A DNA stretch of 64,000 nt, taken from contig CBDCNP010000002.1 in NCBI GenBank assembly GCA_965219415.1, positions 4,512,001-4,576,000 of the forward strand, in the 5' to 3' direction. Below are positions 4,384 through 62,354 of the stretch, in pieces. The position numbers and the translations under genes were made by a program. How positions within the stretch are numbered: the stretch's first letter is position 1; each line of letters begins with the position of its first letter. Source of the DNA: Candidatus Marinacidobacterales bacterium (lineage in GTDB: Bacteria > Acidobacteriota > Vicinamibacteria > Marinacidobacterales > DATDRI01). The notes under the pieces are model-generated. The model searched no databases and was not told the origin of the DNA. It saw nothing but the letters and a program-made list of their open reading frames with translations.

Positions 4384-4426
4384 CGTCGTGTCCAAAAACA
4401 CAAACGAACTCAAGACCCGCACGCCG
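4384..4426 (+). repeat. Repeat family D (left-end fragment of an rve element)
   Basis: CGTCGTGTCCAAAAACACAAACGAACTCAAGACC, also at 17744, 37953, 38010, 43696(rc), 46873 and 47060. Confidence 0.85.
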
Positions 4427-4528
4427 CCGATGTCATCATTAGTGAGGGGGGCGATGCCGTTCGCCGACTGATGGAGATCAAGAGCGAGCGTGGCCGCGGC
4501 CGCAGGTTGGCTTACAACGTGACCTGCC

Positions 4529-6143
4529 TCACAGCGTTGCGACGAGGGCACGCTGCTCCTCCCAATCGTCGGGAAGCGGATGATGGAGGAGGTAGCTCGA
4601 GGTCAGCCCAACGGGCTGACGGCCTTCGACAATGGCACGGACGATGTCGGGAGCCAGGAATGCATAACGGATTGCCTTGCGCACGCGGTCCGTTGGGATG
4701 GCGTCTTCGGTGGCAATCTGCTCATAGGTTTTGCCTGCTTTGATTCGGTCGAGCCAGGAGAAGGCGTTGGCGATATTGCGCAGGAGTGTGCGGTCGACGG
4801 ATTTCGTGGGGTTGCCCAGAACGAGCTTGGTCTCGACGCCGCGTCGACGCAAGCGGAACGGTGCGTGGATGCGGAGTGCATCCTCGCGAATGCGGTCGGG
4901 TCCCATAGACAGGCAATCAGCGAACGAATTGTGGTCGAGCAGGATGGACACAGAGCCTGGGCTGATATCGACCCGCCGGATGAAACGGAGCAGGCTGGCT
5001 GCCGAGGCACTATCATCATTACTACCGGAACACAGCCCGTCTAAAAAGCGACGCACCGAGGCGAGCTCTTGCATCGTCGGAGTGTGGATCAACGAGGCCG
5101 AGAAGGTCGTGGCATCCACATGCTGTCGGATGAGATGCACGACGGTCTGTTCCAGCATCGGGGCGGGCAGTCGCCAGCCGGAGAGGTCCTTTTGGCCACT
5201 GTGCTGGATGAGGCGCCGGGAGACGTAGTAGCGGAGCCGTTGCCCGTTTTTCTTTTTGGTGTGGCTCGGCGTCAGCCGGTCCCCGGTCTCATCGAAGAGC
5301 TTGCCTGCCAGTGGGGAACGGGTTGCACGGCCCTTCGTCGTGCGTCTCCTTGGTTTGGCAGCCCCTGCCTGCAGCTGCGTTTGGACCGCGTCCCAGAGCT
5401 CCGGAGCAATGATCGATGGATGCTGGCCCTCGTAGACACGCCTCTGGTGCCGGATGCGGCCGGCGTAGAGAGGATTGGTCAGCAGGCAGTGGAGGTGTCC
5501 GCGACGGAACGGCAGCCCGCCCGTTAGGGTTCCATCCGCGGCGAAGCGTCGCTTGGTGCGCAGTCCCAGACGGTCCGCGTCGGCCTTCACCTGCCGGAGC
5601 GTTCCGTGCTGCCGGTACAGCGCATAGAGAGTCCGGACCGTTTCGGCCTCAGCCTCGTTGATGCGCAGCGTGCGCTCGTCCTTCTCATAGCCGAGCGGTA
5701 CGCGGCCGCCCATCCATAGTCCCTTGCGCTTGGAGGCAGCGACCTTATCGCGGATCCGCTCGGCCGTGACCTCGCGTTCGAATTGTGCGAAGGACAGCAG
5801 CATATGCAGCGTCAGTCGTCCCATGCTGGTCGCGGTGTTGAAGGACTGGGTCACCGAGACGAAAACCGCGCCGGCCGCCTCCAGCTGTTCGACGAGCTTC
5901 GCAAAGTCGGAGAGGGAACGGGTCAGCCGGTCGACCTTGTAGACCACCACCTGCTCGACGAGACCGGCATCGATGTCGGCGAGCAAGCGCTGCAGGCCCG
6001 GACGCTCCAGGGTTCCTCCCGAGAGCCCCGCGTCCTCGTAGACAGTTGGCAGCAGCACCCAGTCCTCCGCCTTGTGGCTCGCGACATATGCGGCGCAGGC
6101 CTCCCGCTGTGCATCGAGGGAGTTGAAATCCTGTTCGAGACCC
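4529..6143 (-). pseudogene. Large serine recombinase (resolvase + recombinase domains), 5'-truncated
   Basis: Motifs YEDAGLSGGTLERPGL, VYKVDRLTR and FAQFERE. The upstream NSLDAQREAC segment runs into repeat A at 6144, so the catalytic YxRxS is lost. Confidence 0.85.
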
Positions 6144-6676
6144 CGTCCTGTGCCAAAACTCGGCCCTTTTGAAATAGGCCATAAATCAGCAGCTTAGTGT
6201 CTGTGTTTGCGACTGGGCCAAGGCCGTAGGCTTTACAATCGTCTGGCCCGAGGGTGTTATCTTCAGCTCCATGATGACCTACCACCACGTGCAATTCCTA
6301 CTGCTCGTTGTGGCTGGCTGGGTCAACCGCCAGCAGCAGGATGTGATCGACTACCTGCAAGAGGAGAACCGTGTGCTCCGAGCCGGGCTTCGGGGCAAGC
6401 GTCTCAAGCTCTCTGACGACGACCGGCGCAGGCTCGCCGTCAAGGCCCAGGCTTTGGGCCGCGAGGCGCTGGCCCAGATTGCGTCGGTTGCCACACCCGC
6501 TACGCTTCTGCGCTGGTACCGCTGCCTCATCGCAGCTAAGTACGATGGCAGCAAGAACCGGAGCCCAGGCCGACCTCCGACGGCGAAGGATATCCGTGAG
6601 CTCATTGTACGCGTGGCGCGAGAGAACCCGACGTGGGGATATACGCGCCTGCGGGGCGCACTCAAGAACCTCGGAT
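6144..6676 (+). mobile_element. A-type rve element: left end plus N-terminal transposase fragment (ORF from 6271)
   Basis: Begins CGTCCTGTGCCAAAACTCGG. Encodes [23 protein letters not shown]...[18 protein letters not shown] and is homologous to 55552-56379. Confidence 0.85.
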
Positions 6677-6854
6677 GTGTGCCGGTGATTCGCTTTGTGA
6701 TGGTGGTGAGGGACGGGTAGGTTTTGCCGTCGAACCGATAGCCGTTGTCGAGTACCTCGACCTGATAGGTCCTGCCATTCCACTCACGGACAAGATGGGT
6801 GCCGGGAGAAACGGACCCTGCGGGAGCTGGGTATTCTGGTGTTCCGTTCACCAT
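6675..6854 (-). pseudogene. DUF2924-like protein fragment (usual upstream partner of the serine recombinase)
   Basis: [44 protein letters not shown], cut at the transposase fragment. Confidence 0.75.
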
Positions 6855-6889
6855 GGCGGCCAGAGCGCGTCGGGTTGCGGCCGAATGCC

Positions 6890-7166
6890 TGTGCCTTCTA
6901 TTTATTCATCCGCGCGCCCCGAACTTGATCGGTCTCCGGTCTCCCGGGACCATGTCTGCATGATCTCGTCGTTTGTTCGCGCTCGGCTGTGCCTTCTATT
7001 TATTCATCCGCGCCGACCCGAACCTGATCGGTCTCCGATCTGCCGGGACTATGCCTGCATGATTTCGTCGTTTGTTCGCGCTCGGCCCTGGGCACGGCCG
7101 CAAACACAGACTCTAAGTTGCTGATTTATGGGCTATTTCAAAAGGGCTGAGTTTTGGCACAGGACG
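6890..7166 (+). repeat. Tandem C (6890-6987) plus complete C-A MITE (6988-7166)
   Basis: TGTGCCTTCTATTTATTCATCC occurs twice, 98 bp apart. Ends GAGTTTTGGCACAGGACG. Confidence 0.88.
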
Positions 7167-7396
7167 CGGTCGCACGGGTTGTCGGCCAGGAACTCCATCG
7201 CAATGGACGGCACGCACTGGCCGATCTGCGTATTCGCGTTGCCATCCGCGACGAGCGCCACGCGGGCCTGACCTGACCCCACGGTTGGTACCACGTTGTA
7301 TCTCAGTTATTCGGTGCTGACAAGAGCTGGTTGAAGCCGGCGTAGCGGAGCCGGTTTCAACCAAATCGTTTCCGGGGACGTTAGAATGGCTTCGTT

Positions 7397-8155
7397 ATGT
7401 CGAAGCTGTACTTTCGGACTCTATGGGCCGGCGTCGCGTCGCCCTTTGCGGCAGCGGGTCTTGGTCTGTTCGTCTATCGGAGCCTGACGCGTGCGAGCAC
7501 CGACAGGGACGCCGACTTCGTCTTCCGTCTCTCCATAGTCGCGATCGCGATGGCCTTGCCGGGCGTCATCACTCTCGTCCTCGCGCTCGCCGACCACCGC
7601 AAAGGAGCCTTCTCAACAGTGAGCAAGGTGGGCCTGATGCTCGGCATTCTGTCGCTCGGTCTCGTGTTCCTTCCGATTCGAGGCGTCGTCGAGCGCGCTA
7701 CGCAGGCGCGGAACCTAGCGCTCAGTGACGTCGAGGCGCCGCCTTTCTCGACGGCGGATATCCACGGCAACACGCATCGTCTCGACGAGCATGGAGGAAA
7801 GGTCGTGCTCGTAAACGTTTGGGCGACCTGGTGCCCGCCGTGCCGCAAGGAAATGCCGGACCTCGACAAGCTCTATCAGGAACGCAAGAAACAGGGATTC
7901 ATGGTCTTCGGCCTCTCCATAGAGGACCTCGAAACGCAGCTCGACTTCGAAGAAAACGTCCTGTCGGTGAGCTACCCCCTCCTGACGATCGAGGGGGACG
8001 TCCCCGAGATTTATCAGACGACGGCGCGATACCCCGCCAACTACCTAATCGATCGCGAAGGACGGCTGCAACCCGCTCCGAGCACGGAGCAGCCTTTCGA
8101 GAATCTCGTCGTCGCCGTCGACGCGCTCCTGAAGCAGCAGATCAATCGTCGGTAG
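7397..8155 (+). CDS. Membrane-anchored TlpA-family thiol-disulfide oxidoreductase
   Basis: Three N-terminal hydrophobic segments and VNVWATWCPPCRKEMP. TAGAAT at 7382. Confidence 0.88.
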   Translation: MSKLYFRTLWAGVASPFAAAGLGLFVYRSLTRASTDRDADFVFRLSIVAIAMALPGVITLVLALADHRKGAFSTVSKVGLMLGILSLGLVFLPIRGVVERATQARNLALSDVEAPPFSTADIHGNTHRLDEHGGKVVLVNVWATWCPPCRKEMPDLDKLYQERKKQGFMVFGLSIEDLETQLDFEENVLSVSYPLLTIEGDVPEIYQTTARYPANYLIDREGRLQPAPSTEQPFENLVVAVDALLKQQINRR

Positions 8156-8162
8156 CGACGGC

Positions 8163-8307
8163 GGTGCTTGCGCTGTTTGCTGTTGGTGATGTGTACGTAT
8201 CCCTTTGCAAAAAAAGCGCTTACGCTTCATTTAGCGCGCGGCGAAGGTCGTGAGCGCTATTTGGGCTGTAATTTAATGCAGCGTAAAGTCTTAGCGTCAT
8301 CTCACCA
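8163..8307 (-). repeat. B MITE, truncated by the 1285-bp IS
   Basis: Starts GGTGCTTGCGC, matches 31344-31509 and lacks the final ~21 bp. Confidence 0.88.
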
Positions 8308-9592
8308 TGTGCATCGTCAAAACTGCTCCGCCCACGAAATCAAGGACTTACGCTCCGCTTGAATTCCGGGCCGAAGACGGCGAAACTCCGCCGCTATGCT
8401 CGACGTTGTTGTTTTCCTCGTCTCACTTGGCGTCCGTGCCATTCGGGCGATGTGTCGGCGCCGCGCCGACCTGGTGTTGGAGAACGTCGCTTTGCGGCAG
8501 CAAGTGACGGCGCTGAAGAAAGAGCGCCCACGCCCACCGCTCGAAGACACGGAACGGGCTTTCTGGGTTGCTCTTCGAGGTTCGTGGCCCGTGTGGGCGA
8601 GCCGCCTGCTCATCGTCCACGCGGACACCGTAGCCCGTTGGCATCGCGACCGATTCCGACGGTACTGGGCAAAGATCTCGCAGCGCCGCCATCCCGGTCG
8701 GCCTCGGATTGATGCCGAGATTCGCCGCCTCGTCCGCACGATGGCGCAAGACGGCTGGGGGGCGCCACGCATCCATGCTGAGCTCACCAAGCTCGGTTTC
8801 ATCATCTCCGAGAGCACGGTGTCGCGATACTTGCCGCAGCGTCCCGCGGAGCCCGACCAGCTGAAGCGATGGATGGCTTTCTTGCGCAACCATAAAGACG
8901 ATATCGCCGCCATGGATCTGTTCACCGTGCCCACCGCTTCGCTCCGGCTGCTGTACGGCTTCTTCGTCATCGAGCACGGTCGCCGGCACATCGTTCACTT
9001 CAACGCCACGTTCCACCCGACGTCTGCTTGGGTTATTCAGCAACTACGCGAGGCGTTTCCCTACGACACCGCTCCGAGATATCTCATCTTCGATCGCGAC
9101 TTCATCTTTAACGCTGCGGTCATCGAGTTCATCAAGGCAACGGGCACAAAACCCGTTCGCACTTCGTTTCGCAGCCCATGGCAAAACGGAACTGCGGAGC
9201 GGTGGGTCGGCAGCTGCCGTCGCGAGCTCCTTGAGCACGTCGTGGTTCTCGGCGCATGTCATCTCATCCGGCTCGTGCGAGCTTACATCAGCTACTATCA
9301 CGAGGACCGTTGCCACTTGGGGCTGAACAAGGACACACCGAGCTTGAGAGCGGTCACGCACCGACCGTCTCCTACGGCGAAAGTCGTCGCACTGCCGCGA
9401 GTCGGTGGATTGCACCATCGATACGAGTGGCGAGAGGCAGCCTGAGTCAGCTTGGTCGCTCGCGTTATTCGGCTGGTCGCCGAGAAGTTCGTCCTCAGCA
9501 CCTTCCCTCGCGCGCTGACCACGCTCTCCAGCATGTGCTCGAGGGCAGTCCGGGCCTAGAGTCCAGTCCCGGACAGATGATGATGATGGACA
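8308..9592 (+). mobile_element. 1285-bp rve/DDE insertion sequence, copy 1 (IS481-like TGT...ACA ends)
   Basis: Ends TGTGCATCGTCA / TGATGATGGACA. Near-identical copies elsewhere in the window; no TSD. Confidence 0.92.
8396..9445 (+). CDS. Integrase-core (rve) DDE transposase
   Basis: AAMDLF, LIFDRD and SPWQNGTAERWV give the putative DDE triad. Confidence 0.92.
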   Translation: MLDVVVFLVSLGVRAIRAMCRRRADLVLENVALRQQVTALKKERPRPPLEDTERAFWVALRGSWPVWASRLLIVHADTVARWHRDRFRRYWAKISQRRHPGRPRIDAEIRRLVRTMAQDGWGAPRIHAELTKLGFIISESTVSRYLPQRPAEPDQLKRWMAFLRNHKDDIAAMDLFTVPTASLRLLYGFFVIEHGRRHIVHFNATFHPTSAWVIQQLREAFPYDTAPRYLIFDRDFIFNAAVIEFIKATGTKPVRTSFRSPWQNGTAERWVGSCRRELLEHVVVLGACHLIRLVRAYISYYHEDRCHLGLNKDTPSLRAVTHRPSPTAKVVALPRVGGLHHRYEWREAA

Positions 9593-9645
9593 GCATCTGG
9601 TTCTCCGGTTTCGGACTCCGCACGCACATGAACGACGGAGGGCTC

Positions 9646-10065
9646 TTAGGCTGGGTTATCAATGATGGATATTCCTAGGAGTTCGGCGCGTTCGATGATA
9701 CGGACTCCCGCCTCTTGTCGTTCGGCGAGCGTCCGGAACTCAACGGACAGCCCACGGAGAACTCCGCCCTTGATGTTCACAAGTGCAGCGTCGCCCTCGC
9801 GTGTTCGCAATATCTCCGCTTCCATCAAAAGCGCCTTGGAACTGTTGCGCAATGTCAAACCCGCACCTGTTCGGGCCACGGGTCGAGCGGGGTTATGCTG
9901 GATCGTCAACAAGATATCGGTGCTGTCAATATCGAAAGCATGAAGCTCAAACTTCTCCTCGCCCCAAGGCAACACGGCGACGACGCCATAGGCCAAAACA
10001 ACTCCTGAGATGCGGCGCCCGTCTTCTGCCCGTAGTTCGGTCGCAAACCGCTGCTCAGATTTCAT
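9646..10065 (-). pseudogene. HK97-type phage prohead protease (probably truncated)
   Basis: RRISGVVLAYG, IQHNP, GGVLRGLSVEF and ISIIDNPA, with a stop where PAY is expected. Confidence 0.75.
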
Positions 10066-10089
10066 CTGGACATCCAGCGCGCTCCAGCC

Positions 10090-10250
10090 CAACATCGTTC
10101 CGGACAACAAGCGCAAGCCTCTCGTCGCGAGCATCTTCGTGGCGCTCAATGTAATCAGCCACTTCCCAATCCAGCGCCTGCATCAGCATTCGATGGGTAC
10201 CTTCCCGAGACAGCTCGTCCAACTCCTCGCTCACCACCGTGGCTCTTTCT
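10090..10250 (-). pseudogene. IS256-family transposase N-terminal remnant
   Basis: LDELSREGTHRMLMQALDWEVADYIERHEDARDE..LVVRN. Confidence 0.7.
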
Positions 10251-10289
10251 TTCTGGGGAGGTTCCATCCGCGCCGCAAGCCGTTCGACC

Positions 10290-11153
10290 CTAGCGAAGGA
10301 GCCCATTCAGAAGCGCCGCGAGCCGGTACCCGGCGAGCGCCATCTGCCGATCGGCGACCTCTTGGGCTTCGTCCTGATACTGCTTCGGCGGCCGCGCATC
10401 TCGAACAAGATACGACGGGTACAAGCGCGTCCTTGCAAGCTTGGCGCCGGCTTTGGACCAGTCGGTGAATCCTTGAACGCTCATCTCGCTCGCGAGCGTT
10501 GCGCGTGAATGAAGCGTTGTGATCTCGCCCGCGATCCGGTCGACCCATGCCGGATAGCCTTCGCTGTGGTGCTTGCGACGGGCGCGCATCTGTATCGAGT
10601 CCCAAAACGCGTGTAAGTTCCCCCAGGACTCCGGGTCGTCGAGCGCGAAATCGTTCCCTCCGCGATCGCCGTGCGGTTCGGCGTTGGTGACCCGCGCGCT
10701 CGAGTGGAGCGGTTGATGAACGTCACCGACGAGGTGGAGCAACCACGCGAGCTCGACAGCGTCGGGGACGGTGCCCGCGAGCGCCTCGAGTCGTTCGAGG
10801 AGTTCACCGTTCAGCCCCATCTCCGGTAGCGGCGTACCGTCTTCTCGCCAGAAATGATTGACGTAGTGCCACGTCGGGTGATCGTATTTTTCTTTGCGCA
10901 CCGGCCACGCCTCATCGCGCACGACGTCGGGCCAGTACCCGCTGCGGACGAAGAGCTCTCGCGGGCCGAACCCCGATAGCGCGAGGCCGGCGTCTCTCGG
11001 CGCAGCGCGAAGAATCTCGACTGCCCGCTCGCGCGTGGGCTCGCTCATGTGCTCCCACGCGATAGCATCCACAACGAGATGTCCCACGCGATCCCACGCC
11101 GAGGCCGACGACGCACAACAAATAGCGAAGAAAACGACCTTCGAAACTCTCAT
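10290..11153 (-). CDS. Secreted S1/P1 nuclease
   Basis: Signal peptide, then WDRVGH, WPD, WHY, HLVGDVHQPLH, GGN and NLHAFWD. Confidence 0.92.
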   Translation of the reverse strand: MRVSKVVFFAICCASSASAWDRVGHLVVDAIAWEHMSEPTRERAVEILRAAPRDAGLALSGFGPRELFVRSGYWPDVVRDEAWPVRKEKYDHPTWHYVNHFWREDGTPLPEMGLNGELLERLEALAGTVPDAVELAWLLHLVGDVHQPLHSSARVTNAEPHGDRGGNDFALDDPESWGNLHAFWDSIQMRARRKHHSEGYPAWVDRIAGEITTLHSRATLASEMSVQGFTDWSKAGAKLARTRLYPSYLVRDARPPKQYQDEAQEVADRQMALAGYRLAALLNGLLR

Positions 11154-11394
11154 TAAGCGCGTGATAATAGCATGAGCCATGGCCGGTGGGTCCTGGGGCT
11201 GGTAGGGTAGCCCGCTGCGCCGGACGGTTCCCCTGCTGATGCTCAGCGTGCCGACCAATAATAATGATGATGAAGGACACGCAATCGCTCCACCGATGTG
11301 TGCTTCCGCAGTCAAGTGTTGGTGGCCTCCGCGTAATCTGGGTAAACTGCACCAAATGACGGACTCTCACCCCGAATTGTCCTCGCGATATTAC

Positions 11395-11570
11395 GGTGCT
11401 TCCGCCATCAAGTGTTGGTTAAATGACGCTAAGACGTTACGGTGCATTAAGTTACAGCCAAAATAGCGCTCGTGACCTTCGCTGCGCGCTAAATGGAGCG
11501 TAAGCGCTTCTTTTGCAAAGGGATGCGTACACATCACCAACAGCAAACAGCGCAAGCACCGCACAGGACG
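11395..11570 (+). repeat. Complete 166-bp B MITE (11395-11560) fused to the last 10 bp of an A end
   Basis: GGTGCTTCCGC...GCGCAAGCACC inverted ends, then GCACAGGACG. A variant B' end is at ~11320. Confidence 0.9.
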
Positions 11571-11785
11571 GCGTCGTCAGGGCCTGTGACTTGTGATGAT
11601 GACTAATTTAAATTATGTCTATGTAGTAGAAAACTATTACTGTAAATAACTTACAGAATTGTATATATAAAGGCAACAGGATGTGTCGCCAGACTATCTG
11701 ATGAGGCACATCCCTCTGGCGGGGTGGTAGGGACAGCACGATGACAAGGACATGCCAAGCAACTGGAGAAGCCGTCCTCGTCCCT

Positions 11786-11855
11786 CGGATTCCAAGGGCG
11801 TCTAAGCTGCTGATTTGTGGTCTATTTCAAAAGGGCCGAGTTTTGGCACAGGACG
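11786..11855 (+). repeat. A-end fragment (C'-A subtype)
   Basis: CGGATTCCAAGGGCGTCTAAGCTGCTGATT...GGCACAGGACG, as at 25305-25373 and 42173-42243. Confidence 0.88.
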
Positions 11856-12193
11856 GGATGACGCGGGCGTATCGGTCATCGAATACACCCTTCAATCCGG
11901 CACCAGCCACGAAACCTGGCAGCGCAAACAGCGAGCGGATCGACTGGGAATTTTTCACTCGGTTAGCCTATCCTAAAAATGGACCACTTTTCAGCACCTG
12001 ATGAAGTACTGGATACCTTTTCCACACAATGAGTTACACTGTTTTCCGTCAGGACTTACCCACACGAATCCGCGTAGACCCCTTATTACTAACGACTTAT
12101 TCTTGTGGACCCTTAATTTCTGTCTTAGATTCTTGTTTGGTAGTCCTGCCGGTATCCTTAGATCGTTCAACTTATTAAAAAGGGGGACGTACC

Positions 12194-13288
12194 GTGGACT
12201 CGGATCCGAAACAGTCTCTCTCGGCTTCAGACCCAACTGGCTCGTGGGGCGCGCACCCAGAGCTCAAAGCCGCTAGCGCGGTCGCGCCCTTTGCCGAATC
12301 CTCTCCTGCGCCAGTGGTGCATCCGGTCGTTGCGGCGACAGCGCGCAAGAAGGCGCAGCCTAGCAAAGGCCGTATCATTGCGGTTGGCGGCGGCAAAGGC
12401 GGCGTTGGCAAGAGCCTCATTACGAGCAGCGTCGGGATCTCTCTTGCACGGCACGGCAAGAAAGTGGTGGTTATCGATGCCGACCTCGGCGGAGCGAATC
12501 TCCATACTTGCTTGGGCTTGTCCACACCGTCGCTCACGCTGAGCGATTTCATCAGTCGGCGCGTCGAGTCGATTGACGACGTGATTCTCGAGACTGGCGT
12601 CAAGAACCTCGGACTCATCAGCGGCGCACACGACCATCTCGCCGCGTCGAATCTGAAATATGGTCAGAAAACCCGACTCTTGTCCTGTATCGCTGCCGTG
12701 GACGCCGATTTCGTCTTGCTCGACATCGGTGCTGGGATCTCGTTCAACATCGTCGACTTCTTTCTCATTGCGGAGCAAGGGCTCCTCGTCGCGATCCCCG
12801 AGCCGAGCTCGATCGAGAACGCCTACCGCTTCCTAAAAATGAGTTTTTACCGTCATCTGTGGCGCGCTTTGAAGTCGAGCCCGGTGCGCAAAGTAGTTGA
12901 GCAAGCGATGGACCAAAAGAATCGCGACGGCATCCGCACGCCCATCGATCTTCTCGACGCTGTGGAGCGTCGCGACAGTGCTACCGGACGCTATCTCAAG
13001 GAGCAAGCCTTCTCGTTTCGGCCGCGGCTTCTGATCAATCAGGTCCGCTACCCCGAGGACGAGGGTCTCGGCGCGTCGATGGCCAGCGTCTGCCGTCGCC
13101 ATCTCGGAATCGCTATCGACGCCATCGGCTCGGTGCGCTTCGACGAGAGCGTTTGGAAGGCGAACCGCAAACGCAGACCTTTCATGCTCGACTTTCCCGA
13201 ATCCGCAGCAGGAAGCTCCCTTGAGCGTGTGGCACAGGCTTTGATGTTCGGGCCACCCACTTTAGCGCGCACGGAGAGACGAAGTTGA
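12194..13288 (+). CDS. MinD/FlhG-like P-loop ATPase
   Basis: Deviant Walker A GGKGGVGKS and DADLGGANLH. Confidence 0.88.
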   Translation: MDSDPKQSLSASDPTGSWGAHPELKAASAVAPFAESSPAPVVHPVVAATARKKAQPSKGRIIAVGGGKGGVGKSLITSSVGISLARHGKKVVVIDADLGGANLHTCLGLSTPSLTLSDFISRRVESIDDVILETGVKNLGLISGAHDHLAASNLKYGQKTRLLSCIAAVDADFVLLDIGAGISFNIVDFFLIAEQGLLVAIPEPSSIENAYRFLKMSFYRHLWRALKSSPVRKVVEQAMDQKNRDGIRTPIDLLDAVERRDSATGRYLKEQAFSFRPRLLINQVRYPEDEGLGASMASVCRRHLGIAIDAIGSVRFDESVWKANRKRRPFMLDFPESAAGSSLERVAQALMFGPPTLARTERRS

Positions 13289-13980
13289 TGCTAAGACGGC
13301 TCAGCGAGCAAGACCATTATCAAGTTCTCGAGGTTTCGTACGACGCGAGCTCCGAAGAGATCCAGTCGGCCTTCGAGACGGCCCGCGACATCTACTCTCA
13401 CGAAGCGCTCGTTTCCAGCTCGATTCTGTCGGACCGCGAGCGCCGTCGCACGTTCCACCGGATCTCGGAGGCGTATCAGATGCTCATTGCTGAAGAAAGC
13501 CGCCGTCTCTACGATAAGAGGCTCGGGGTTCCGGAACCGGTCGTGCGCCGGGAGCAAGGGTCGAGGTTCGCCACCGCCGACAACGTCGAGGCGACGTCCA
13601 CGAATGGCGACGTCGCTCCGTCCGAGGCCCACGCTGAGCGGGAGCACGTCTCCGCCGACGATGTCGAGACGCCCGAGAAAGCGGCGGGCTCGGAGAGTTC
13701 CGTGCGCGAGTGCCCGCTACAACTCGAGACGTCCGCAGAAGCGACTGGAGCGTTTCTTAAGGCGGCGCGACAGGCGATGGGACTCGAGTTGGCAACCATC
13801 TCTAAAGAAACGAAAATCGGCTGCTCCATGCTCGAATATATCGAGAACGAGAGACTCGATCGCCTCCCGGCCGCGGTCTATTTGCGCAATTTCACCAGGC
13901 AATTTGCCCGTTGTCTCGGGCTCGACGAAGATCAGGTTTCGACGACCTACTTGGAGCGCATCCACCGCCTCCAAAGCTAA
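13285..13980 (+). CDS. J-domain-like plus RodZ-type HTH protein
   Basis: N-terminal DHYQVLEV...EAYQML..RRLYD and C-terminal LEYIENE..DRLPA.VYLRNF..QFARCLGL. Confidence 0.78.
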   Translation: MMLRRLSEQDHYQVLEVSYDASSEEIQSAFETARDIYSHEALVSSSILSDRERRRTFHRISEAYQMLIAEESRRLYDKRLGVPEPVVRREQGSRFATADNVEATSTNGDVAPSEAHAEREHVSADDVETPEKAAGSESSVRECPLQLETSAEATGAFLKAARQAMGLELATISKETKIGCSMLEYIENERLDRLPAAVYLRNFTRQFARCLGLDEDQVSTTYLERIHRLQS

Positions 13981-14040
13981 CGCCCGATCCCGCGCTCACA
14001 AGCTGCTATAGTTAGGAGCTTTGGACGGGAGGTCTCTCTT

Positions 14041-14139
14041 TTGCCCACGCTCTCCGTGGTGATCCCTTGCTACAACGAGACGCTTACGATCGAGACGATC
14101 GTCGACGCGGTTTCGAAGAGTGAGATCGAGGATCTCGAG
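14041..14139 (+). pseudogene. Glycosyltransferase family 2, first ~33 codons only
   Basis: TTG-PTLSVVIPCYNE..TI, joined to an rve fragment. Confidence 0.75.
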
Positions 14140-14317
14140 ACGCGCGCGCCAAGCCGTCGCCGAACTCATCCATCATTATCATAGAGAGCGCAAACATCAA
14201 GGACTTGGGAACGCGTTGATCGCAGCCGAAGAATGCGTCGGCAGTCCTCACGGTAACGTGCCGATGTTGTACGCGATGGGGCGGCTTGCTCATTTATTCC
14301 ACCGCGCCGCCGCATAG
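14140..14317 (+). pseudogene. rve transposase C-terminal remnant
   Basis: AVAELIHHYHRERKHQGLGNALI...RAAA*, homologous to the end of 20213-21280. Confidence 0.8.
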
Positions 14318-14393
14318 GAGTTCGGGCGCGCCAAGCTGGACGGAACGGATGCTCCGGAGGAGAGTTCTGCTCGGGCTCGCCTATCGAAGACCC

Positions 14394-14571
14394 CGTCCTG
14401 TGCCAAAACTCGGCCCTTTTGAAATAGAGCATCAATCAGCAGCTTAGTGTCTGTGTTTGCGGCCGTGCCAAGGGCCGAGCGCGAACAAACGACGAAATCA
14501 TGCAGGCATGGTCCCGGCAGACCGGAGACCAATCAAGTTTGGGGCGCGCGGATGAATAAATAGAAGGCACA
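14394..14571 (-). repeat. Complete C-A MITE (178 bp)
   Basis: CGTCCTGTGCCAAAACTC...GAATAAATAGAAGGCACA. Confidence 0.9.
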
Positions 14572-14727
14572 ACTCAGTTGGGCGCGCAACTCGGTCTCTT
14601 CCGCACCTGTCCCACTGCCCGCAGCCGCGTAGCAACACTTGATGGCGGAAGCACCGGAGCGACAATCAGAAGATCGTGTAGATGAACGGCGCCTCGGTCA
14701 GTTTCGTCGAGGTCATGAGCGCTGTGA

Positions 14728-16023
14728 TCACCGCCAGTTGAGATTGGTGTCGTTTGAAAAAGGTTTCTTGCCCCACGCTGGATCTTGGCCGGGACACGTA
14801 GTCGGGGGTTCGAGGCCATCAAACTCCCATTGGTTCGGCGGCGGTCCGGCTGCACCAATAGCAAAACACCAGCCCGTCACTGTCCGGCGCCAGGCATACC
14901 AGGATTGGCTGTCTTCGGAGACACGAAGTGTGATGCCTGATTCTTCGGGCAGGCCACTGCGCGTGAGATCCTTGCCGATGATCTGCAGGAGGTCATCGCG
15001 GTATCGCCCACCGCGGTTGCCGTACCAGCCCATTTGATACATGTGCAGTTTCGACAAAGCGTCGATCGTCTCCTTAAACTCGCGGCGGTCGAGGCGTCGC
15101 CCCCGTTCATCTGTGTCGTCCGAGCCGGCATAGCGGCGCAGACGTTCCTGTTCATCTGCTACCGCGCGTACCGCTTCTCTCTGTTGTCTTTTGAAGTTGC
15201 CTATGATCTGACGAGCTGCCGTGAAAGTGGAGGCCGCGGAAAGCTCTCTGACCCAATATGCGTGAAATCTGGATAGGTCGCGGATACGAACGTGGAACGA
15301 AATGAGCAGTGCTGCACGGGCGCGCCAGCGGGCACGGCCATCTTCGTTGAAGGAGTTGATACGGCGGAACGCTGAATCGTAGGAGAGATAGAGGCTAATG
15401 CCATAGATGAACGGTAAGAGGCCGATCGTCAACCAAACCGGCAGGCCGAACTTCAGCAAGAGCGCACGCGCGTCAATCTGGCCCCAGCCGAGATACCCCC
15501 GTCGCGCTGTGTAGATAAGCAAGGCACAGCCGACCACCGTGAGCAACGCCTCGCAGAATATCTTTGAGCGCCGGTGTTCCGGCTTGAAGCTACCGACGGT
15601 TGCGCAGAGCGTCAGGATTAAGACTACAGGCTGTAGCGCGAGTTCCACCGGCAGGCTCATCACATACAGGTTGACGAAGAACCCAACAAACACAACGACG
15701 CCGACCGTGTCGAGCATCGTCCGTCTGAAGAAACGCGGGTCAGTGGCTGCCTGCGTGCAGTTAAAGAAAAGAACAGCTGCCGAGCCAACCGTCCACGGAA
15801 CCGTATCTTTGGCAAAGGCTGCGTTCCAGAGCGACAGATGGGTGCCGACCCATAACTCAAGGCCAATCCATGCGAACATCGCCAAGAGTGGGATGATGAT
15901 GACGGGCTGTAAGAACAGCTTGAGGACGCCGCAGAGGCCCGATCTCTGCTTCGGTTGGAACAGCAGCCAAAGCGTAGCGACGCCTAACCAGAGAAGGACC
16001 GCGATCTCACGGTTGTTGAGCAT
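14728..16023 (-). CDS. Hypothetical multi-pass membrane protein with soluble C-terminal domain
   Basis: 431-aa ORF with about 7 hydrophobic segments, TTG start preceded by GGTG. Confidence 0.7.
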   Translation of the reverse strand: MLNNREIAVLLWLGVATLWLLFQPKQRSGLCGVLKLFLQPVIIIPLLAMFAWIGLELWVGTHLSLWNAAFAKDTVPWTVGSAAVLFFNCTQAATDPRFFRRTMLDTVGVVVFVGFFVNLYVMSLPVELALQPVVLILTLCATVGSFKPEHRRSKIFCEALLTVVGCALLIYTARRGYLGWGQIDARALLLKFGLPVWLTIGLLPFIYGISLYLSYDSAFRRINSFNEDGRARWRARAALLISFHVRIRDLSRFHAYWVRELSAASTFTAARQIIGNFKRQQREAVRAVADEQERLRRYAGSDDTDERGRRLDRREFKETIDALSKLHMYQMGWYGNRGGRYRDDLLQIIGKDLTRSGLPEESGITLRVSEDSQSWYAWRRTVTGWCFAIGAAGPPPNQWEFDGLEPPTTCPGQDPAWGKKPFSNDTNLNWR

Positions 16024-16139
16024 TGGAGAAACACCGCCGCTGTTCTGATTGCGTCTGGACCGCGCTCGAGAACTCGGGAGCTATAATCGGTGAGCGCTCT
16101 TCCTCCCGGCTTCGCTGGCAGCGATGCAGACGGTTGTCC

Positions 16140-16620
16140 TCTATGAAGTTTCAATTTTCTCTTAAGCGGGGGCCTTATCCTCCATCGCTACCCTCCCCGC
16201 TATCCAGCAGGCCGAGGCTGTAGCCCAACCGGTAGTTTTGCCCCGTCTCGGACGACCCGAAGCCGACCCGCGGTGTTCCGACGAAGCGGTGTCCGACCAG
16301 CCATCCCGTAACCGAGGTCTGCGAGGACGCCCGCCGGATGCTTGGCTGCTGCGGGCTGTCAGCCCGGTCATCGTCTCCCGGCCCCACAGCGCCCCCTGTG
16401 GCTTGCCCGCCCCACGAAGGCGCCACCCCCGTGCCGTAAAGCTCAGCGGCGTCGAGGGTGTCGGGTCGAAGCCCGACACGCCCCGGTCCCGGAAGCCTTC
16501 GGCCTCGTGCACTAGCAGCATCCGCACCCGCACGTCCGCTGACAGGCCCAGCGAAGGGTCCGACACTACCAGACCGCTGCCGAGCCCTCGGTGCGCTCGA
16601 CCGGCGTAGCGTGGAAACAG
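16140..16620 (-). pseudogene. Degraded C-terminal beta-barrel (autotransporter-like) domain of a large surface protein
   Basis: Frameshifted pieces LLVHEAEGFRDRGV, DPTPSTPL, APSWGGQATG, LWGRETM and VGHRFVGTPRVGFGSSE..YRLGYSLG (family recalled from memory). Confidence 0.55.
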
Positions 16621-16792: not shown

Positions 16793-16793
16793 G

Positions 16794-18839: not shown

Positions 18840-18847
18840 GGGTCAAT

Positions 18848-49498: not shown

Positions 49499-49552
49499 TG
49501 GACTTGACCCGCTTTCGTGGACACCTAATCCTTTGGGAGACAGGAGTCCACG

Positions 49553-49867: not shown

Positions 49868-50715
49868 GGGCGAACCAGGATTCACTACCGGTTGCCACGA
49901 TGTGCCGACTGCTGGACGTCTCCGCCAGCGGCTACTATGCGTGGCTTGAGCGTGCCCCGTCGGCCCGCGCGGTGTCGGATGCGGAGTTGCTTGAGAAGAT
50001 CCGGGCGATTCACACCGCGTCGCGGAGCACGTACGGCGCGCCGAGGATTCTCCACGAGCTACGAGAGACACACGAGCTCCACGTCTCACGCAAGCGTGTA
50101 GCGCGGCTAATGCGCGAGGCTGGCATTCAAGGTGTTCACCGGCGCAAGAGGGCGCACACTACGATTCGCTGTGACGACGCCCGTCCCGCCCCCGATCTCG
50201 TCGACAGGAATTTCGAGGTGGACCGGCCCGACCGCCTGTGGGTCGCCGATATCACCTACGTGCCCACGTGGTCGGGCTTCTTGTTCCTCGCCGTCGTGCT
50301 GGACGCCTTCAGCCGACGCATCGTCGGATGGGCAATGGCTACCCACCTGCGGACGTCGCTCGTCTTGAGCGCCCTCGACATGGCGCTGTTCCAACGCAAG
50401 CCCGGCGACGTCATCCATCACTCGGACCAGGGCACGCAGTACACGTCACTAGCGTTCGGCCAGCGATGCCGGGAGGCCGGGGTGCGACCGTCGATGGGTT
50501 CGGTCGGGGACTGTTACGACAATGCGATGTGCGAGAGCTTCTTCGCGACGCTCGAGTGCGAGCTGATCGAGCGCCGGTCGTTTCGCTACCACGCTGAGGC
50601 GCGCATGGCGACCTTCGATTTCATCGAAGGCTGGTACAACCCGCGACGACGACACTCCGCCATCGACTATTGCTCGCCTATCCAATTCGAAAGGAGGTAC
50701 TATCGCGACGCTTGA
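49864..50715 (+). CDS. IS3 OrfB DDE transposase
   Basis: WVADITY, HHSDQGTQY and DNAMCESFFATLE. Confidence 0.92.
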   Translation: MRANQDSLPVATMCRLLDVSASGYYAWLERAPSARAVSDAELLEKIRAIHTASRSTYGAPRILHELRETHELHVSRKRVARLMREAGIQGVHRRKRAHTTIRCDDARPAPDLVDRNFEVDRPDRLWVADITYVPTWSGFLFLAVVLDAFSRRIVGWAMATHLRTSLVLSALDMALFQRKPGDVIHHSDQGTQYTSLAFGQRCREAGVRPSMGSVGDCYDNAMCESFFATLECELIERRSFRYHAEARMATFDFIEGWYNPRRRHSAIDYCSPIQFERRYYRDA

Positions 50716-50820
50716 TCCCTAACTCTTAACCTGTCCACGAAAGCGGGGTCACTTCACCTGTTCGCGTGCTAGAGTTTTAGCCTGATTTCGATAGGCGCAG
50801 TTCTTTCGTCGATGCCGGCT

Positions 50821-50843
50821 GGGCCGAGTTTTGGCACAGGACG
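50821..50843 (+). repeat. A tip
   Basis: GGGCCGAGTTTTGGCACAGGACG. Confidence 0.8.
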
Positions 50844-50878
50844 GGAACTATGAGATACGATAGGGTGGGTAGGCGGTG

Positions 50879-51540: not shown

Positions 51541-51716
51541 GGTGCTTCCGCCATCACGTGTTGGTGAGATGACGCTACGACTTTACGGTGCATTAAGTTA
51601 CAGCCAAAATAACGCTCGTGACCTTCGCTTCGCGCTAAATGGGGCGTAAGCGCCTTTTTTGCAAAGGGATGCGTACACATCACCAACAGTAAACAGCGCA
51701 AGCACCGCACAGGACG
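51541..51716 (+). repeat. Complete B MITE (51541-51706) fused to A tip
   Basis: Same B|GCACAGGACG junction as 11395-11570. Confidence 0.9.
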
Positions 51717-54534: not shown

Positions 54535-55466
54535 CGGTGAGAAATTTTCAGTCGGCGCTTGTTCGGTTTGAGCACCATCCCACTTCCGAATCGCTGGTGG
54601 TAGCGCTGCACGAAGAGCTGTCGGAATTCGTCTGGGCAACGCCGCGCAGGCGTTCGGAGACGGGTTTCGGGATGACCTGTCACCCAGGCAAGCGCCCACT
54701 CCGACGGAATAGGCTTGCCAGCCGCGACGATCTGACCGAGCGCTAGACGCACTTCCGAGGCAAGCTCGCCACTCCCACTACCGAAAGTCGGCGGGCGCTT
54801 CCAGGCTCTTTCTTGCGACCAAAGCGCTCGGGCCAACTGGATCAATGAGGTGCTATATCTGTCGAACGATCTGTTCCCAGCGTAGATTGAGCGCAGACGT
54901 TCGACCTCGGCGATCAGCGCGTGGGCCTCACCCCGACGCTCCGGAAGGTACCGAAGGTCGAAGAGGAGCCGGCGCTCTAGGCCGTAGAAGAAGAGGAAGA
55001 CGTACCCAATGTAGGCGTTCGTGTCTGACCGTCCGCCCACGAGCCAATCGAGATAGGCGGCGCGAGACTCGTCTGGGATCCGGGAATACGAGGGCCAGTA
55101 GCCCATGCCCTCGCCGGAATAGTCACGGCGGCCGCGGGCAACCTTCAGTGCGGGAACGATCAGAGCGGGCTCGCAATCCTGCCAGCCCCCGACTGGCAAC
55201 AGTGAAGAGCCTACGTAGACCATGCCCCCCGAGATGAGGCGATTCGCGACCTTCGCGTCGGATTCCGGTGGGATCCACAGTTGGTCGGCGGCTCGCGCGT
55301 GCTTGGCCGGCTCGACGCGGTGGCGGGTTGTGGACGGGAACTGAACCTCCCCGTCCGATTCGACGTCGACCGAGTTCGTCACTACATTGATCAAGATGCC
55401 AATCAGAACGAGGCCAACGAGGATAAAGAGGCCGATCAGAACGAGGCCAACGAGAGCGCTCATCAT
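54535..55466 (-). pseudogene. TerB N-terminal-domain protein, 3'-truncated
   Basis: GYWPSYSRI...RAAYLDWL and IGYVFLFFYGLERRL, cut by the E end. Confidence 0.85.
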
Positions 55467-55511: not shown

Positions 55512-55551
55512 GGTGCTTGCGCTGTTTGCTGTTGGTAATGTGCACGCATCC
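55512..55551 (-). repeat. B end cut by A element
   Basis: GGTGCTTGCGC...CGCATCC, the same breakpoint as 42172. Confidence 0.85.
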
Positions 55552-56379
55552 CGTCCTGTGCCAAAACTCGGCCCTTTTGAAATAGGCCATAAATCAGCAG
55601 CTTAGTGTCTGTGTTTGCGACCGTGCCAAGGGCCGCAGGCTCTACAATCGTCTTGGGCGGACGGGTCGTCACCATGCAGAAGACCACCTAGGCGAGGGCG
55701 AATATCCAAGCGTGTTCCTGAATCTGTCGCAGCGATAGCGCCCCCATGAGCCTTGATGAAGGTGCTCCACGGCATACTCTTGCTCCGCTCCGGGGCAGGC
55801 GCGATACCGTGCTCGGCGAGGGCCCCCTTGATGGTGTTGCGTCCGAGTTCATATCCGAGGTTCTTGAGTGCGCCCTGCAGGCGCGTATATCTCCATGTCA
55901 GGTTCTCCCGCGCCACACGTACCATGAGCTCACGGACGTCCTTCGCCGTGGGAGGTCGGCCTGGACTCCGGTTCTTGGTGCCATCGTACTTGGCTGCGAT
56001 GAGGTAGCGGTACCAGCGCAACAGCGTAGCGGGTGTGGCAACGGACGCAATCTCGGCCAGCACCCAGCGGCCCAAGGCCTGGGCCTTGACGGCGAGCCTG
56101 CGCCGGTCGTCGTCAGAGAGCCTGAGACGTTTGCCCCGAACCCGGCTCGGAGCACACGGTTCTCCTCTCGCAGGTAGTCAACCACGTCCTGCTGCTGGCG
56201 GTTGACCCAGCCAGAACGAGCAGTAAGAATTGCACATGGTACGTCATGATGGATCCGAAGATAACACCCTCGGGCCAGACGATTGTAAAGCCCACGGCCC
56301 TTGACCTAGTCGCAAAACACAGACTCTAAGTGGCTGATTTATGGCCTATTTCAAAAGGGCCGAGTTTTGGCACAGGACG
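55552..56379 (-). mobile_element. Internally deleted A-type rve element with ~100-bp imperfect terminal inverted repeats
   Basis: CGTCCTGTGCC...GGCACAGGACG. The frameshifted transposase N-terminus is fused at AATD to the RLGGLL tail. Confidence 0.88.
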
Positions 56380-56750
56380 CGGTCGCGAGCTACATCGAGG
56401 AGTTCTACAATCCGTATCGACTCCACTCCTCACTCGATTACAACAGCCCAATGGTGTTCGAACGCATTCATGACCTCAAAACCGCTCATGCGAGATAATC
56501 AACCTGTCCACTTTTCCTGGGCAAGGTCACTAGACGCCCTTTAGCGAATTGCGGACTGCATTGAAAAGGGTAAACTGAGTCAGATGGGAGGCGTACACGG
56601 CAGAATCGACGGCTCATCAGCTGGCCGGAAGTTTCCCGTGATCGATGTGAAACGGCAGATGTACCACCAAGATGTGCTGGATCGCCTTGTCGAACTGTTC
56701 ATCGAGTTCACGGCCAAAGCCGGTCGAGAGTGGTTCCAGACAGTGGGTCA
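56380..56750 (+). pseudogene. Two IS3-family remnants (3' end with IR to 56529; internal OrfB piece ~56620-56750)
   Basis: YIEEFYNPYRLHSSLDYNSP, CTGTCCACTTTTCCTGGGCAAGGTCA and DVLDRLVELF/EFTAKA.REW. Confidence 0.72.
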
Positions 56751-60833: not shown

Positions 60834-60924
60834 GGAAAATCTGGTGTGATAGCTAGTATTTGCTCGGTGAGGTATTTCTTGTGAAGTCGTAGTGGGCTAG
60901 CACGTTCTGGTCTAGATGCGCCTA

Positions 60925-61068
60925 GGTGCTTCCGCCATCAAGTGATGGGATGGACTCCTCCGCTGACATAGACGGCATCGATGTGCCAAAGTCAGTCGAA
61001 AGAACGCATCGAAAAAGGAGGAGTCCGAATGAAAGATGCGACGATCGCTGTGGGTCTTGCAAAGAACG
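60925..61068 (+). mobile_element. B tip (60925-60944) fused to an IS110/IS1111-like left end and first 13 codons
   Basis: ATGGACTCCTCC...GGAGGAGTCC, then MKDATIAVGLAKN, cut by the 1285-bp IS. Confidence 0.72.
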
Positions 61069-62354
61069 TGTCCATCATCATTATTAATCCGGGACTGGAC
61101 TCTAGGGCCCGGACCGCCCTCGAGCACATGCTGGAGAGCGTGGTCAGCGCGCGAGGGAAGGTGCTGAGGAGGAACTTCTCGGCGACCAGCCGAGTAACGC
61201 GAGCGACCAAGCTGACTCAGGCTGCCTCTCGCCACTCGTATCGATGGTGCAGTCCACCGACTCGCGGCAGTGCGACTACTTTCGCCGTAGGAGACGGTCG
61301 GTGCGTGACCGTTCTCAAGCTCGGTGTGTCCTTGTTCAGCCCCAAGTGGCAACGGTCCTCATGATAGTAGCTGATGTAAGCTCGCACGAGCCGGATGAGA
61401 TGACATGCACCGAGAACCACGACGTGCTCAAGGAGCTCGCGACGGCAGCTGCCGACCCACCGCTCCGCGGTTCCGTTTTGCCATGGGCTGCGAAACGAAG
61501 TGCGAACGGGTTTTGTGCCCGTTGCCTTGATGAACTCGATGACCGCAGCGTTAAAGATGAAGTCGCGATCGAAGATGAGATATCTCGGAGCGGTGTCGTA
61601 GGGAAACGCCTCGCGTAGTTGCTGAATAACCCAAGCAGACGTCGGGTGGAACGTGGCGTTGAAGTGAACGATGTGCCGGCGACCGTGCTCGATGACGAAG
61701 AAGCCGTACAGCAGCCGGAGCGACGCGGTGGGCACGGTGAACAGATCCATGGCGGCGATATCGTCTTTATGGTTGCGCAAGAAAGCCATCCATCGTTTCA
61801 GCTGGTCGGGCTCCGCGGGACGCCGCGGCAGGTATCGCGACACCGTGCTCTCGGAGATGATGAAACCGAGCTTGGTGAGCTCAGCATGGATGCGTGGCGC
61901 CCCCCAGCCGTCTTGCGCCATCGTGCGGACGAGGCGACGAATCTCGGCATCAATCCGAGGCCGACCGGGATGGCGGCGCTGCGAGATATTTGCCCAGTAC
62001 CGTCGGAATCGGTCGCGATGCCAACGGGCCACGGTGTCCGCGTGGACGATGAGCAGGCGGCTCGCCCACACGGGCCACGAACCTCGAAGGGCAACCCAGA
62101 AAGCCCGTTCCGTGTCTTCGAGCGGTGGGCGTGGGCGCTCTTTCTTCAGCGCCGTCACTTGCTGCCGCAAAGCGACGTTCTCCAACACCAGGTCGGCGCG
62201 GCGCCGACACATCGCCCGAATGGCACGGACGCCAAGTGAGACGAGGAAGACAACAACGTTGAGCATAGCGGCGGAGTTTCGCCGTCTTCGGCCCGGAATT
62301 CAAGCGGAGCGTAAGTCCTTGATTTCGTGGGCGGAGCAGTTTTGACGATGCACA
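61069..62354 (-). mobile_element. 1285-bp IS, full copy (1286 bp)
   Basis: TGTCCATC...GATGCACA. Confidence 0.92.
61217..62266 (-). CDS. rve DDE transposase
   Basis: Near-identical to 8396-9445. Confidence 0.92.
   Translation of the reverse strand: MLNVVVFLVSLGVRAIRAMCRRRADLVLENVALRQQVTALKKERPRPPLEDTERAFWVALRGSWPVWASRLLIVHADTVARWHRDRFRRYWANISQRRHPGRPRIDAEIRRLVRTMAQDGWGAPRIHAELTKLGFIISESTVSRYLPRRPAEPDQLKRWMAFLRNHKDDIAAMDLFTVPTASLRLLYGFFVIEHGRRHIVHFNATFHPTSAWVIQQLREAFPYDTAPRYLIFDRDFIFNAAVIEFIKATGTKPVRTSFRSPWQNGTAERWVGSCRRELLEHVVVLGACHLIRLVRAYISYYHEDRCHLGLNKDTPSLRTVTHRPSPTAKVVALPRVGGLHHRYEWREAA

Follow-up and report, generated by a model that had tools for sequence, protein, structure and literature searches.

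Structure of the array

We analysed a 64,000-nt stretch of DNA (the window; contig C3:4512001-4576000) from the metagenome-assembled genome (MAG) of Candidatus Marinacidobacterales bacterium, an assembly of 8.05 Mb and 59% GC in three contigs. Over positions 4384-62354, unrelated genes alternate with short repeats and with copies of a 1285-bp insertion sequence (IS), here termed IS1285. A preliminary description of this DNA had proposed a new integron-like system, in which rve-type transposases acting in trans on transposon ends capture, trim and reshuffle single-gene cassettes; its stated alternative was a hot spot of insertion, at which neighbouring DNA is deleted and selection retains the surviving genes. 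The alternation it described is clear. Self-BLAST of the window gave 358 non-self high-scoring segment pairs (HSPs) across 36 repeated segments, a motif scan located 60 tips, and IS1285 is represented by six full copies and two partial ones. The repeats are more diverse than the five families first distinguished, as HSP boundaries stack at sharp positions that define at least 15. When the window is compared with the whole genome, the copy number of its parts reaches 556, and 38.5% of 4384-62354 is made of sequence with at least 10 genome copies. The tips comprise 15 of type A, 11 IS1-like left, seven IS1-like right, eight D, six C, seven IS1285-L, four IS1285-R (a motif which overlooked at least three diverged tips) and two IS1738.

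Between the repeats lie about 21 blocks of one to three genes, which were called by codon usage with a crude gene caller and annotated using Pfam, NCBIfam and PADLOC. Defence domains are abundant among them, and the GC content ranges from 0.507 to 0.651 per kb, in agreement with the earlier statement that the cargo is rich in immunity-type domains and varied in composition. The genes are of mixed orientation (15 plus, 11 minus) and include fragments of a serine recombinase, a type IIG enzyme, a TerB_N/SngA-like gene and a Sel1-repeat gene. Position 4384, given as the start of the array, is indeed the edge of a repeat, a 43-nt C-type end piece (4384-4426), but this piece lies inside a multi-copy serine-recombinase unit (3418-6142), and the same architecture extends beyond both sides of 4384-62354. 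Type I and type IIG restriction genes form the two edges of the window. Its flanks are likewise mosaic and multi-copy; positions 1-3864 have a 94% paralogue, and relatives carry pieces only.

Mobile elements

Repeat family A is the end of a 1432-bp IS, termed ISA, which encodes a 356-aa rve-type transposase and has 11 intact copies in the genome. The tip is sharp, with a conservation of 0.97-1.0 inside and ∼0.3 outside over 516 tips. Within the window, ISA is represented by a degenerate copy (6142-7170, plus), which has an A-type tip at each end, a truncated transposase open reading frame (ORF; 6271-6720, 94.8% identical to the ISA transposase over 135 aa) and two D units (6890-7083), and by an 830-nt deletion derivative (55550-56383, plus), of which a second copy with different flanks lies elsewhere. 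The genome holds 48 full copies of IS1285. The first in the window (8308-9592, plus) encodes a 349-aa rve_3 transposase (8396-9445); the other full copies lie at 28276-29560 (minus), 34077-35361, 39056-40340 and 47444-48728 (all plus) and 61069-62354 (minus), and the partial ones at 22201-23220 and 31510-31929. The three direct copies that start at 34077, 39056 and 47444 bracket two gene blocks (35362-39055 and 40341-47443). A third element, IS1738 (20083-21821, plus), encodes a 355-aa rve transposase (20213-21280), and its tips are related to those of ISA; copies 99-100% identical to it are found in four other genomes. The ends of family C, like those of IS1738, are variants of the A tip, and family D starts with a TGTGCC end that resembles the IS1285 ends.

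The earlier reading of the repeats as rve-transposon ends is thus borne out by their sharp inverted tips and by the identification of the parent elements, and the window transposases match Pfam rve_3 with E values of 1.7e-8 and 5.5e-6. The IS1738 and ISA transposases are 46.6% identical, and the IS1285 transposase is 32-33% identical to both. All three fall below the curated NCBIfam cut-offs for IS481 (79.8-95.6 bits against 224) and IS3 (59-85 bits against 160). Homologues on plasmids share less than 40% identity, and their sole annotation is 'integrase core domain-containing protein'. The three transposases form an unclassified related group.

Family B is a complete 166-nt miniature inverted-repeat transposable element (MITE), with 147 full copies in the genome, ∼90% alike, and 140 distinct left flanks. 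It has the usual properties of a MITE: it is short, contains no ORF, occupies many distinct sites and carries the ends (GGTGCTTSCGC) of an autonomous element, in this case a 1200-bp element with about 28-31 copies. We call the latter IS1-like, as the best match of its protein is NCBIfam IS1, at 84.7 bits, under the cut-off of 100; the protein scores 20.1 bits against Pfam DDE_Tnp_IS1, also under the cut-off (24.1), and a Pfam IS1 search of the genome gave one weak match only. Complete MITE copies with these inverted ends lie at 11395-11560 (plus), 31344-31509 (minus) and 51541-51706 (plus). Another (8163-8307, minus) is cut at its position 22 by an IS1285 tip, and fragments are found at 28154-28272, 33926-34041, 37868-37952, 42133-42172, 47186-47288 and 55512-55552.

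The first 22-25 nt of A are common to several non-autonomous families, namely a 320-bp MITE (14 genome copies), a 180-nt A-D chimeric MITE, and the types denoted A25 and A56. One chimeric copy runs in plus orientation from an A tip at 14392 to a D tip at 14571 and is followed by an IS1-like end stub reaching 14655; others lie at 6988-7168 (minus) and 43155-43334 (plus). A 72-nt A56-type stub (11786-11857, plus, tip at 11857) recurs at 25302-25375 and 42172-42245, and a 212-nt A end occupies 16585-16796. Overall, solo ends and MITEs far exceed intact elements, with ∼520 A tips in the genome against 11 intact ISA copies. Since non-autonomous copies have spread, as seen from the distinct flanks of the 166-nt MITE and the 14 copies of the 320-bp MITE, the transposases must act in trans, and this part of the original proposal stands.

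The A56 end is the terminus of the serine-recombinase unit, which gives 27 genome HSPs of at least 300 nt. In the window copy (3418-6142, minus) the ORF spans 4529-6058, with the frame open to 6142. This copy is without the catalytic N-terminus: it is cut near codon 35 at the A tip of the next element, and Pfam Resolvase is matched from profile position 34 onwards. Six other copies continue for ∼740 nt, with a start codon, a second ORF and the A56-type end. No common boundary was found for the left end of the unit, the copies breaking at different points. The serine recombinase may be a passenger, or it may serve as a cointegrate resolvase for the rve elements.

Junctions between elements

None of the elements showed a clear target duplication. 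For ISA there were none at the 11 host-genome copies; for IS1285, 3-bp flank matches were seen at five of 48 copies, against 2.65 expected; the 166-nt MITE gave none in 147 copies (k of at least 4, any offset 0-5); and inspection by eye of 22 copies of the 1200-bp element gave none. Duplications made by the IS1 family are 8-9 bp long.

The junctions between elements are unusual. Full-length copies of five families number 253; in 77 of them a flank lies inside another element of our library, and not one of the interrupted elements is contiguous on both sides: the opposite flank continues it at 0 of the 77 junctions, even when a duplication of 0-12 bp is allowed, and for 64 there is no continuation within 8 kb. 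The 166-nt MITE alone gives 0 of 52 testable junctions two-sided. The pattern is one in which one partner has an intact tip and the other is cut, its remainder missing, and the trimming at tips that had been proposed is therefore well founded. Certain positions are used repeatedly. A position 22/23 is joined by five different TGTSC-type ends, and A positions ∼36-38 by IS1-like ends of at least three subfamilies. The lengths of the retained stubs are skewed towards the tips and yet spread along the elements (24 of 81 within 10% of the element length), which makes the evidence for end-targeting moderate outside the two fixed A positions. The elements thus insert into or alongside one another, in many cases at set positions within terminal repeats, and nearly every junction is one-sided. 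When the flanks of each element were joined and searched for leniently in the genome as empty sites, only alignments of 65-87% identity were obtained, which were too poor to be informative.

With respect to the genes, tips point at the cargo at 33 of the 41 block sides, and none of the blocks in the window lies inside a matched pair of outward-facing ends. A-pair lengths above 1.5 kb are all distinct. The sole candidate for an enclosed block, 14392-16796, has one other partial copy, which shares its left flank.

The short distances between repeats and genes that had been listed are essentially correct. The A tip before the HEPN gene reaches to 30600, directly adjoining the ATG at 30601; the IS1-like MITE begins 5-8 nt past the TlpA stop (8155); an A tip at 42245 is 12 nt from 42257, where an ORF ends; the MITE fragment at 33926 is 29 nt past the AlbA_2 stop; 51743 is 26 nt from 51717; and the TerB_N and TIR genes start 44-46 nt from repeats. 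Such proximity does not clearly exceed what chance would give. Genome-wide, ORFs of at least 100 aa start 0-15 nt from 46 of 515 A tips, compared with 42-48 for shifted controls and 61 (scaled to 515) for random island positions, and ORF ends fall in this range at 27 of 515 tips, compared with 14-28 for shifted controls and 12 for random positions. The median repeat-to-gene distance in the window is 67.5 nt (38 block ends, as given by the crude gene caller); a uniform point in IS-free intergenic gaps would give 47.8 nt (p 0.81) and a length-weighted null 187 nt (p 5e-6).

The defence compartment

With 1,574 occurrences genome-wide (1,469 on C3, 98 on C2 and seven on C1), six tip motifs are far above chance. 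The tips occupy 128 of 404 20-kb bins (32%), with correlations of r 0.51-0.95 between the densities of the families, and the tip-bearing compartment amounts to 2.56 Mb, about a third of the genome. The window contains 13 A tips compared with 13.1 expected for an average tip-bearing stretch, and there are 2.56 Mb of similar DNA; the window is therefore a sample of this compartment and not a discrete locus. IS1285 alone is locally enriched (seven left tips against 1.9 expected). The compartment is also where the defence genes lie, with 25 of 25 N6_Mtase and three of three TIR_2 matches in tip-bearing bins compared with nine of 65 for ABC_tran. Defence genes are thus concentrated relative to housekeeping genes, as in a defence island, and the repeats cluster with defence genes, a clustering for which the preliminary description had proposed a test. 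The genome as a whole is sharply divided into two compartments, the six tip families being nearly absent from contig C1 (2.07 Mb) and from the initial 1.8 Mb of C3.

The same elements are found in relatives, which are assembled as single 6-9 Mb contigs. Of 21 related genomes, seven have A-tip counts of 522, 484, 414, 340, 140, 97 and 30, and 14 have counts of 0-2; these counts are out of step with kinship. Other genera of the order contain the IS, and some of the gene modules, at 99-100% identity, and the compartment therefore appears, on the basis of this identity, to be fed also by recent horizontal transfer. The bacterium is a sponge-associated member of the Acidobacteriota, and parts of the window are present in sponge metagenomes. 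A comparison of 4300-22200 with public data drew on four runs, represented by short Logan contigs that break at repeats; window cargo pieces were found at 95-100% identity in contigs from four runs of four studies, and contigs from three runs connect the C end (4426) with the end of the nuclease module (11201).

Genes of the blocks

Downstream of the degenerate ISA copy lies a TlpA/AhpC-type thiol-disulfide protein gene (7397-8155, plus; Pfam AhpC-TSA, E 1.1e-20), and beyond the first IS1285 a prohead-protease fragment (9646-10149) and an S1/P1 nuclease gene (10290 to ∼11181), both on the minus strand and assigned by Pfam. The breakpoints of the nuclease module differ between the three contexts in which it occurs, and one of them lies 2 nt past the stop codon. 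A module at 11856-14140 (plus) consists of a repeat termed P (11856-12081), a ParA-like gene (12194-13288) and a DnaJ-HTH gene (13285-13980), and is 99.5-100% identical in a genome from another family. Repeat P, attached to the ParA-DnaJ module, is 225 nt long with sharp ends; about 40-50 copies occur in the genome and at least 10 in one relative. A segment that includes all of these genes (window 3546-14140) is duplicated 420 kb away (C3:4930871-4941408) over 10.6 kb with 99.16% identity; this may be a genuine duplication of recent date, or else an artefact of the assembly or of strains. A 431-aa ORF of no known family follows (14728-16023, minus; no Pfam or PADLOC match).

The Sel1-repeat/Excalibur gene (23434-24726, plus) abuts a truncated IS1285 on its 5' side. 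It contains eight tandem 108-nt units (23385-24452), which are ordinary protein repeats and lie outside the transposon families. A TIR-NB-ARC-TPR STAND protein is encoded at 25668-28109 (minus; Pfam). On the plus strand are an ADP-ribosylglycohydrolase gene (29631-30491), an 86-nt A end (30513-30600) and the HEPN RiboL-PSP gene from 30601 (segment to 31260), then the gene for an AlbA_2/Schlafen-HATPase_c_4 protein (32155-33897; Pfam, with PADLOC pAgo-associated profiles). Between two direct IS1285 copies lies a block with a Dam-type methyltransferase, a PDDEXK_11 nuclease and a 264-aa ORF (35390-37449, plus), which was not found in any of the 19 published relatives searched; an unpublished genome gave a single partial match of 68% identity, on which we base no claim. 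The first 153 nt after the IS1285 copy on its left (35362-35514, including the start of the Dam gene) recur at 38904-39055, directly before the next IS1285, and the left edge of this repeat coincides exactly with the IS1285 tip junction.

In segment 40710-46892, genes on the minus strand are separated by end stubs: a NucS-like/PDC-S11-like protein (40710-41978), a 213-aa ORF (42257-42898), a HEPN/Toprim protein (43692-44978) and a 623-aa ORF (45021-46892). An MIP channel gene (48747-49430, plus) is followed, in the same orientation, by an IS1-like end stub (49458-49498), an IS3-family element (49499-50756) and an A25-type end (50756-50845). The TerB_N gene is a fragment (54644-55466, minus) matching positions 28-210 of 528 of the SngA profile, with neither SngB nor SngC seen as a partner. 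Segment 56775-60833 (plus) contains the genes for a metallophosphatase (PDC-S60-like) and a HATPase_c_3 protein. At the right edge, a type IIG restriction-methylase gene (62300-64000, minus) is cut at an IS1285 tip (62354), and orthologues in two other genomes extend beyond the cut point. An apparent boundary of this fragment common to three genomes was rejected as an artefact of the query start, the orthologues extending further.

Origin of the array

The explanation which we favour, with a probability of roughly 0.68, is that the array is the wreckage of repeated insertion and tip-adjacent deletion or inversion, with selection for surviving genes and no capture machine; that is, the alternative named in the preliminary description fits best. 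A guild of mobile elements (ISA, IS1738, IS1285, the IS1-like IS and its MITE, the chimeric MITEs and the serine-recombinase unit) would have invaded the compartment repeatedly. From the one-sided junctions, the stacking at end positions and the broken neighbours we infer that junctions arise mainly by transposase-made deletions and inversions next to tips (intramolecular, probably replicative transposition), to which recombination between copies may contribute. Each event would delete DNA beside the tip, and genes kept by selection (restriction-modification, TIR-STAND, HEPN and nuclease genes), together with fragments not yet removed, would persist between the stubs. The outcome would look like a cassette array, with no dedicated capture enzyme required.

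Several points weigh against this explanation. The evidence for its mechanism consists of junction statistics and includes no excision product, cointegrate or reciprocal inversion pair. The absence of duplications may be a trait of the ISA family and no mark of rearrangement, since no duplication of at least 3 bp was found at 18 ISA copies in relatives or at 21 distant homologues with detectable inverted ends. At 13 of the 77 junctions there is a possible continuation within 8 kb, which could mean stacked insertions without loss. As the library contained seven elements, some 'one-sided' partners may belong to families outside it. The MAG has 8.45% contamination, and the data available for checking its long-range assembly were short contigs. 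Lastly, the multi-copy ParA-DnaJ module and its 225-nt repeat, identical across genera, leave room for module mobility.

A second reading is an exchange of the kind attributed to IS26, which we consider unlikely here. End-targeted replicative transposition by a duplication-less rve/IS1-like guild would excise circles of an element plus a block of genes ('translocatable units'), which re-insert beside other copies or ends, and defence genes would be traded within and between co-resident species of sponge symbionts. The direct IS1285 copies that bracket two blocks are as expected from this, as are the solely one-sided junctions without target duplications, the cargo-facing tips, which recall IS26 arrays, the 99-100% identity of IS and some modules in other genera, and the joining of the C end to the nuclease end in three runs. 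For IS26 itself, replicative transposition is reported to bring about the reorganisation of plasmids, with inversions and deletions among the outcomes (PMC4471558). However, the contig-only data yielded neither a circle nor a repeated unit with identical ends, the Dam block occurs in none of the relatives searched, the breakpoints of the nuclease module vary by context, most blocks are flanked by ends from two different families, and the transposases do not belong to the IS6 family. The integron-like system first proposed, with rve transposases capturing, trimming and reshuffling single-gene cassettes in trans, is improbable. Non-autonomous elements with these ends have certainly spread, the multi-copy unit with an A-type end carries passenger genes (the serine recombinase and a second ORF), the distance from tip to ORF end is 0-12 nt in some cases, and the cargo is rich in defence domains. 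Against this, no block has a matched outward-facing pair of ends (14392-16796 included, given its single partial copy), tips face the cargo, orientation is mixed, several genes are fragmentary, ORF starts are no more frequent at A tips than at shifted controls, and the window is no denser in tips than the rest of the 2.56 Mb. The nuclease module also has differing breakpoints in its contexts. As had been noted, there is no integron integrase in the window, nor is there one near it; TIGR02249 exceeds its cut-off at a single site, on a different contig (C1:736836-737528). That integron integrase-like gene (C1:736836-737778) is on a repeat-poor contig, and its match is split in two frames (profile 85-315 and 1-91), possibly by a frameshift. 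At the cassette boundaries, where attC sites would be expected, the repeats were identified instead as terminal inverted repeats of IS and MITEs, no dedicated attC model having been applied.

It is very improbable that simple insertions were scrambled solely by homologous recombination among the copies. Hundreds of copies do lie in both orientations in the same megabases, and the 10.6-kb duplication attests to large-scale rearrangement. Short diverged repeats such as the 166-nt MITE, ∼90% alike, are nevertheless poor recombination substrates, and the MITE copies yet show neither two-sided junctions nor duplications; clustering at fixed positions of target ends is also not expected from recombination between copies. 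Finally, we regard as extremely improbable an assembly artefact, in which path switches at repeats would make the block order unreal. The contamination, the internal duplications of 99-100% identity and the availability of only short contigs for comparison leave some scope for it. If the assembly is from long reads, as the contig sizes suggest, the junctions of the 166-nt MITE would fit within single reads. Moreover, the arrangement of MITE, nuclease and repeat recurs in two independently assembled genomes, relatives assembled as single contigs contain the same elements, and cargo pieces recur in contigs of four studies.

Relation to known systems

The array resembles IS26 arrays in that blocks are punctuated by IS with cargo-facing tips, without target duplications of their own and with one-sided junctions, and in that direct IS copies bracket segments. 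Insertion is favoured next to other copies in both, and the adjacent deletions and inversions that IS26 makes would be a further shared trait. It differs in that the transposases are rve/IS1-like and not IS6, in consisting mostly of solo stubs of several families and MITEs and not of whole copies of one IS, and in carrying defence genes in place of resistance genes; no translocatable unit is shown here. IS expansion and erosion occur in host-restricted bacteria, such as the Sodalis-type symbionts of weevils and tsetse flies and Orientia. The present genome, likewise from a host-associated bacterium, shares with these the hundreds of IS copies, insertions of IS in IS, pseudogenes and rearrangements, but restricts its elements to roughly a third of its length, the part with the defence genes, and differs also in that solo ends and MITEs outnumber the intact copies many times over.

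As in integrons, unrelated and mostly single genes with adaptive functions are separated by short repeats; here, however, there is no integrase at the locus, the repeats are transposon ends with known parents, and the units have mixed orientation, unfixed ends and fragments among them. Mobile insertion cassettes, transporter IS and passenger-gene MITEs have IS-type ends and carry genes, but no transposase. The serine-recombinase unit with its A-type end may be one of these, whereas the cargo of the window lies outside the ends and not between outward-facing pairs. Immunity genes concentrated with mobile elements in variable regions are known as defence islands, and the combination of restriction-modification and immunity genes with mobile elements is found here too, as it is in sponge symbionts. 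The compartment is unusual among defence islands in its extent of 2.56 Mb and in the share of high-copy repeat in the stretch examined. Sponge symbionts rich in defence genes have been described (PMC5649159, PMC5099237).

No new gene-capture system is thus revealed. What is of interest is a compartment that takes up about a third of an 8-Mb symbiont genome and mixes defence genes with some 1,600 transposon tips, the near-identity of its elements across genera, and the one-sidedness of all testable nested junctions. Were tip-adjacent deletion and inversion indeed the cause, the compartment would represent a natural, large-scale, IS-driven turnover of immune genes in uncultured host-associated bacteria, and an unclassified, apparently duplication-less family of rve-transposase IS would become accessible to a simple transposition assay. 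Exchange of circles, if it took place, would make the array a chromosomal, multi-family counterpart of IS26 translocatable units.

ISA-type elements in other bacteria

A search with the ISA transposase returned 531 relatives. We did not find a description of the family in the literature, in a search that was not exhaustive, and its sequences suggest that it may be an undescribed IS group. No target duplication of at least 3 bp was seen in ∼50 inspected copies of the family (representative C3:2611388-2612819). The closest relatives of the transposase (95-97% identity) are in contigs of Candidatus Marinacidobacterales bacterium, and homologues of 56-66% identity occur in several other phyla. ISA-type inverted ends, (C)CGTxxTGTGCCAAAAC, are conserved in MAGs of Acidobacteriota, Myxococcota, Planctomycetota and Gammaproteobacteria.

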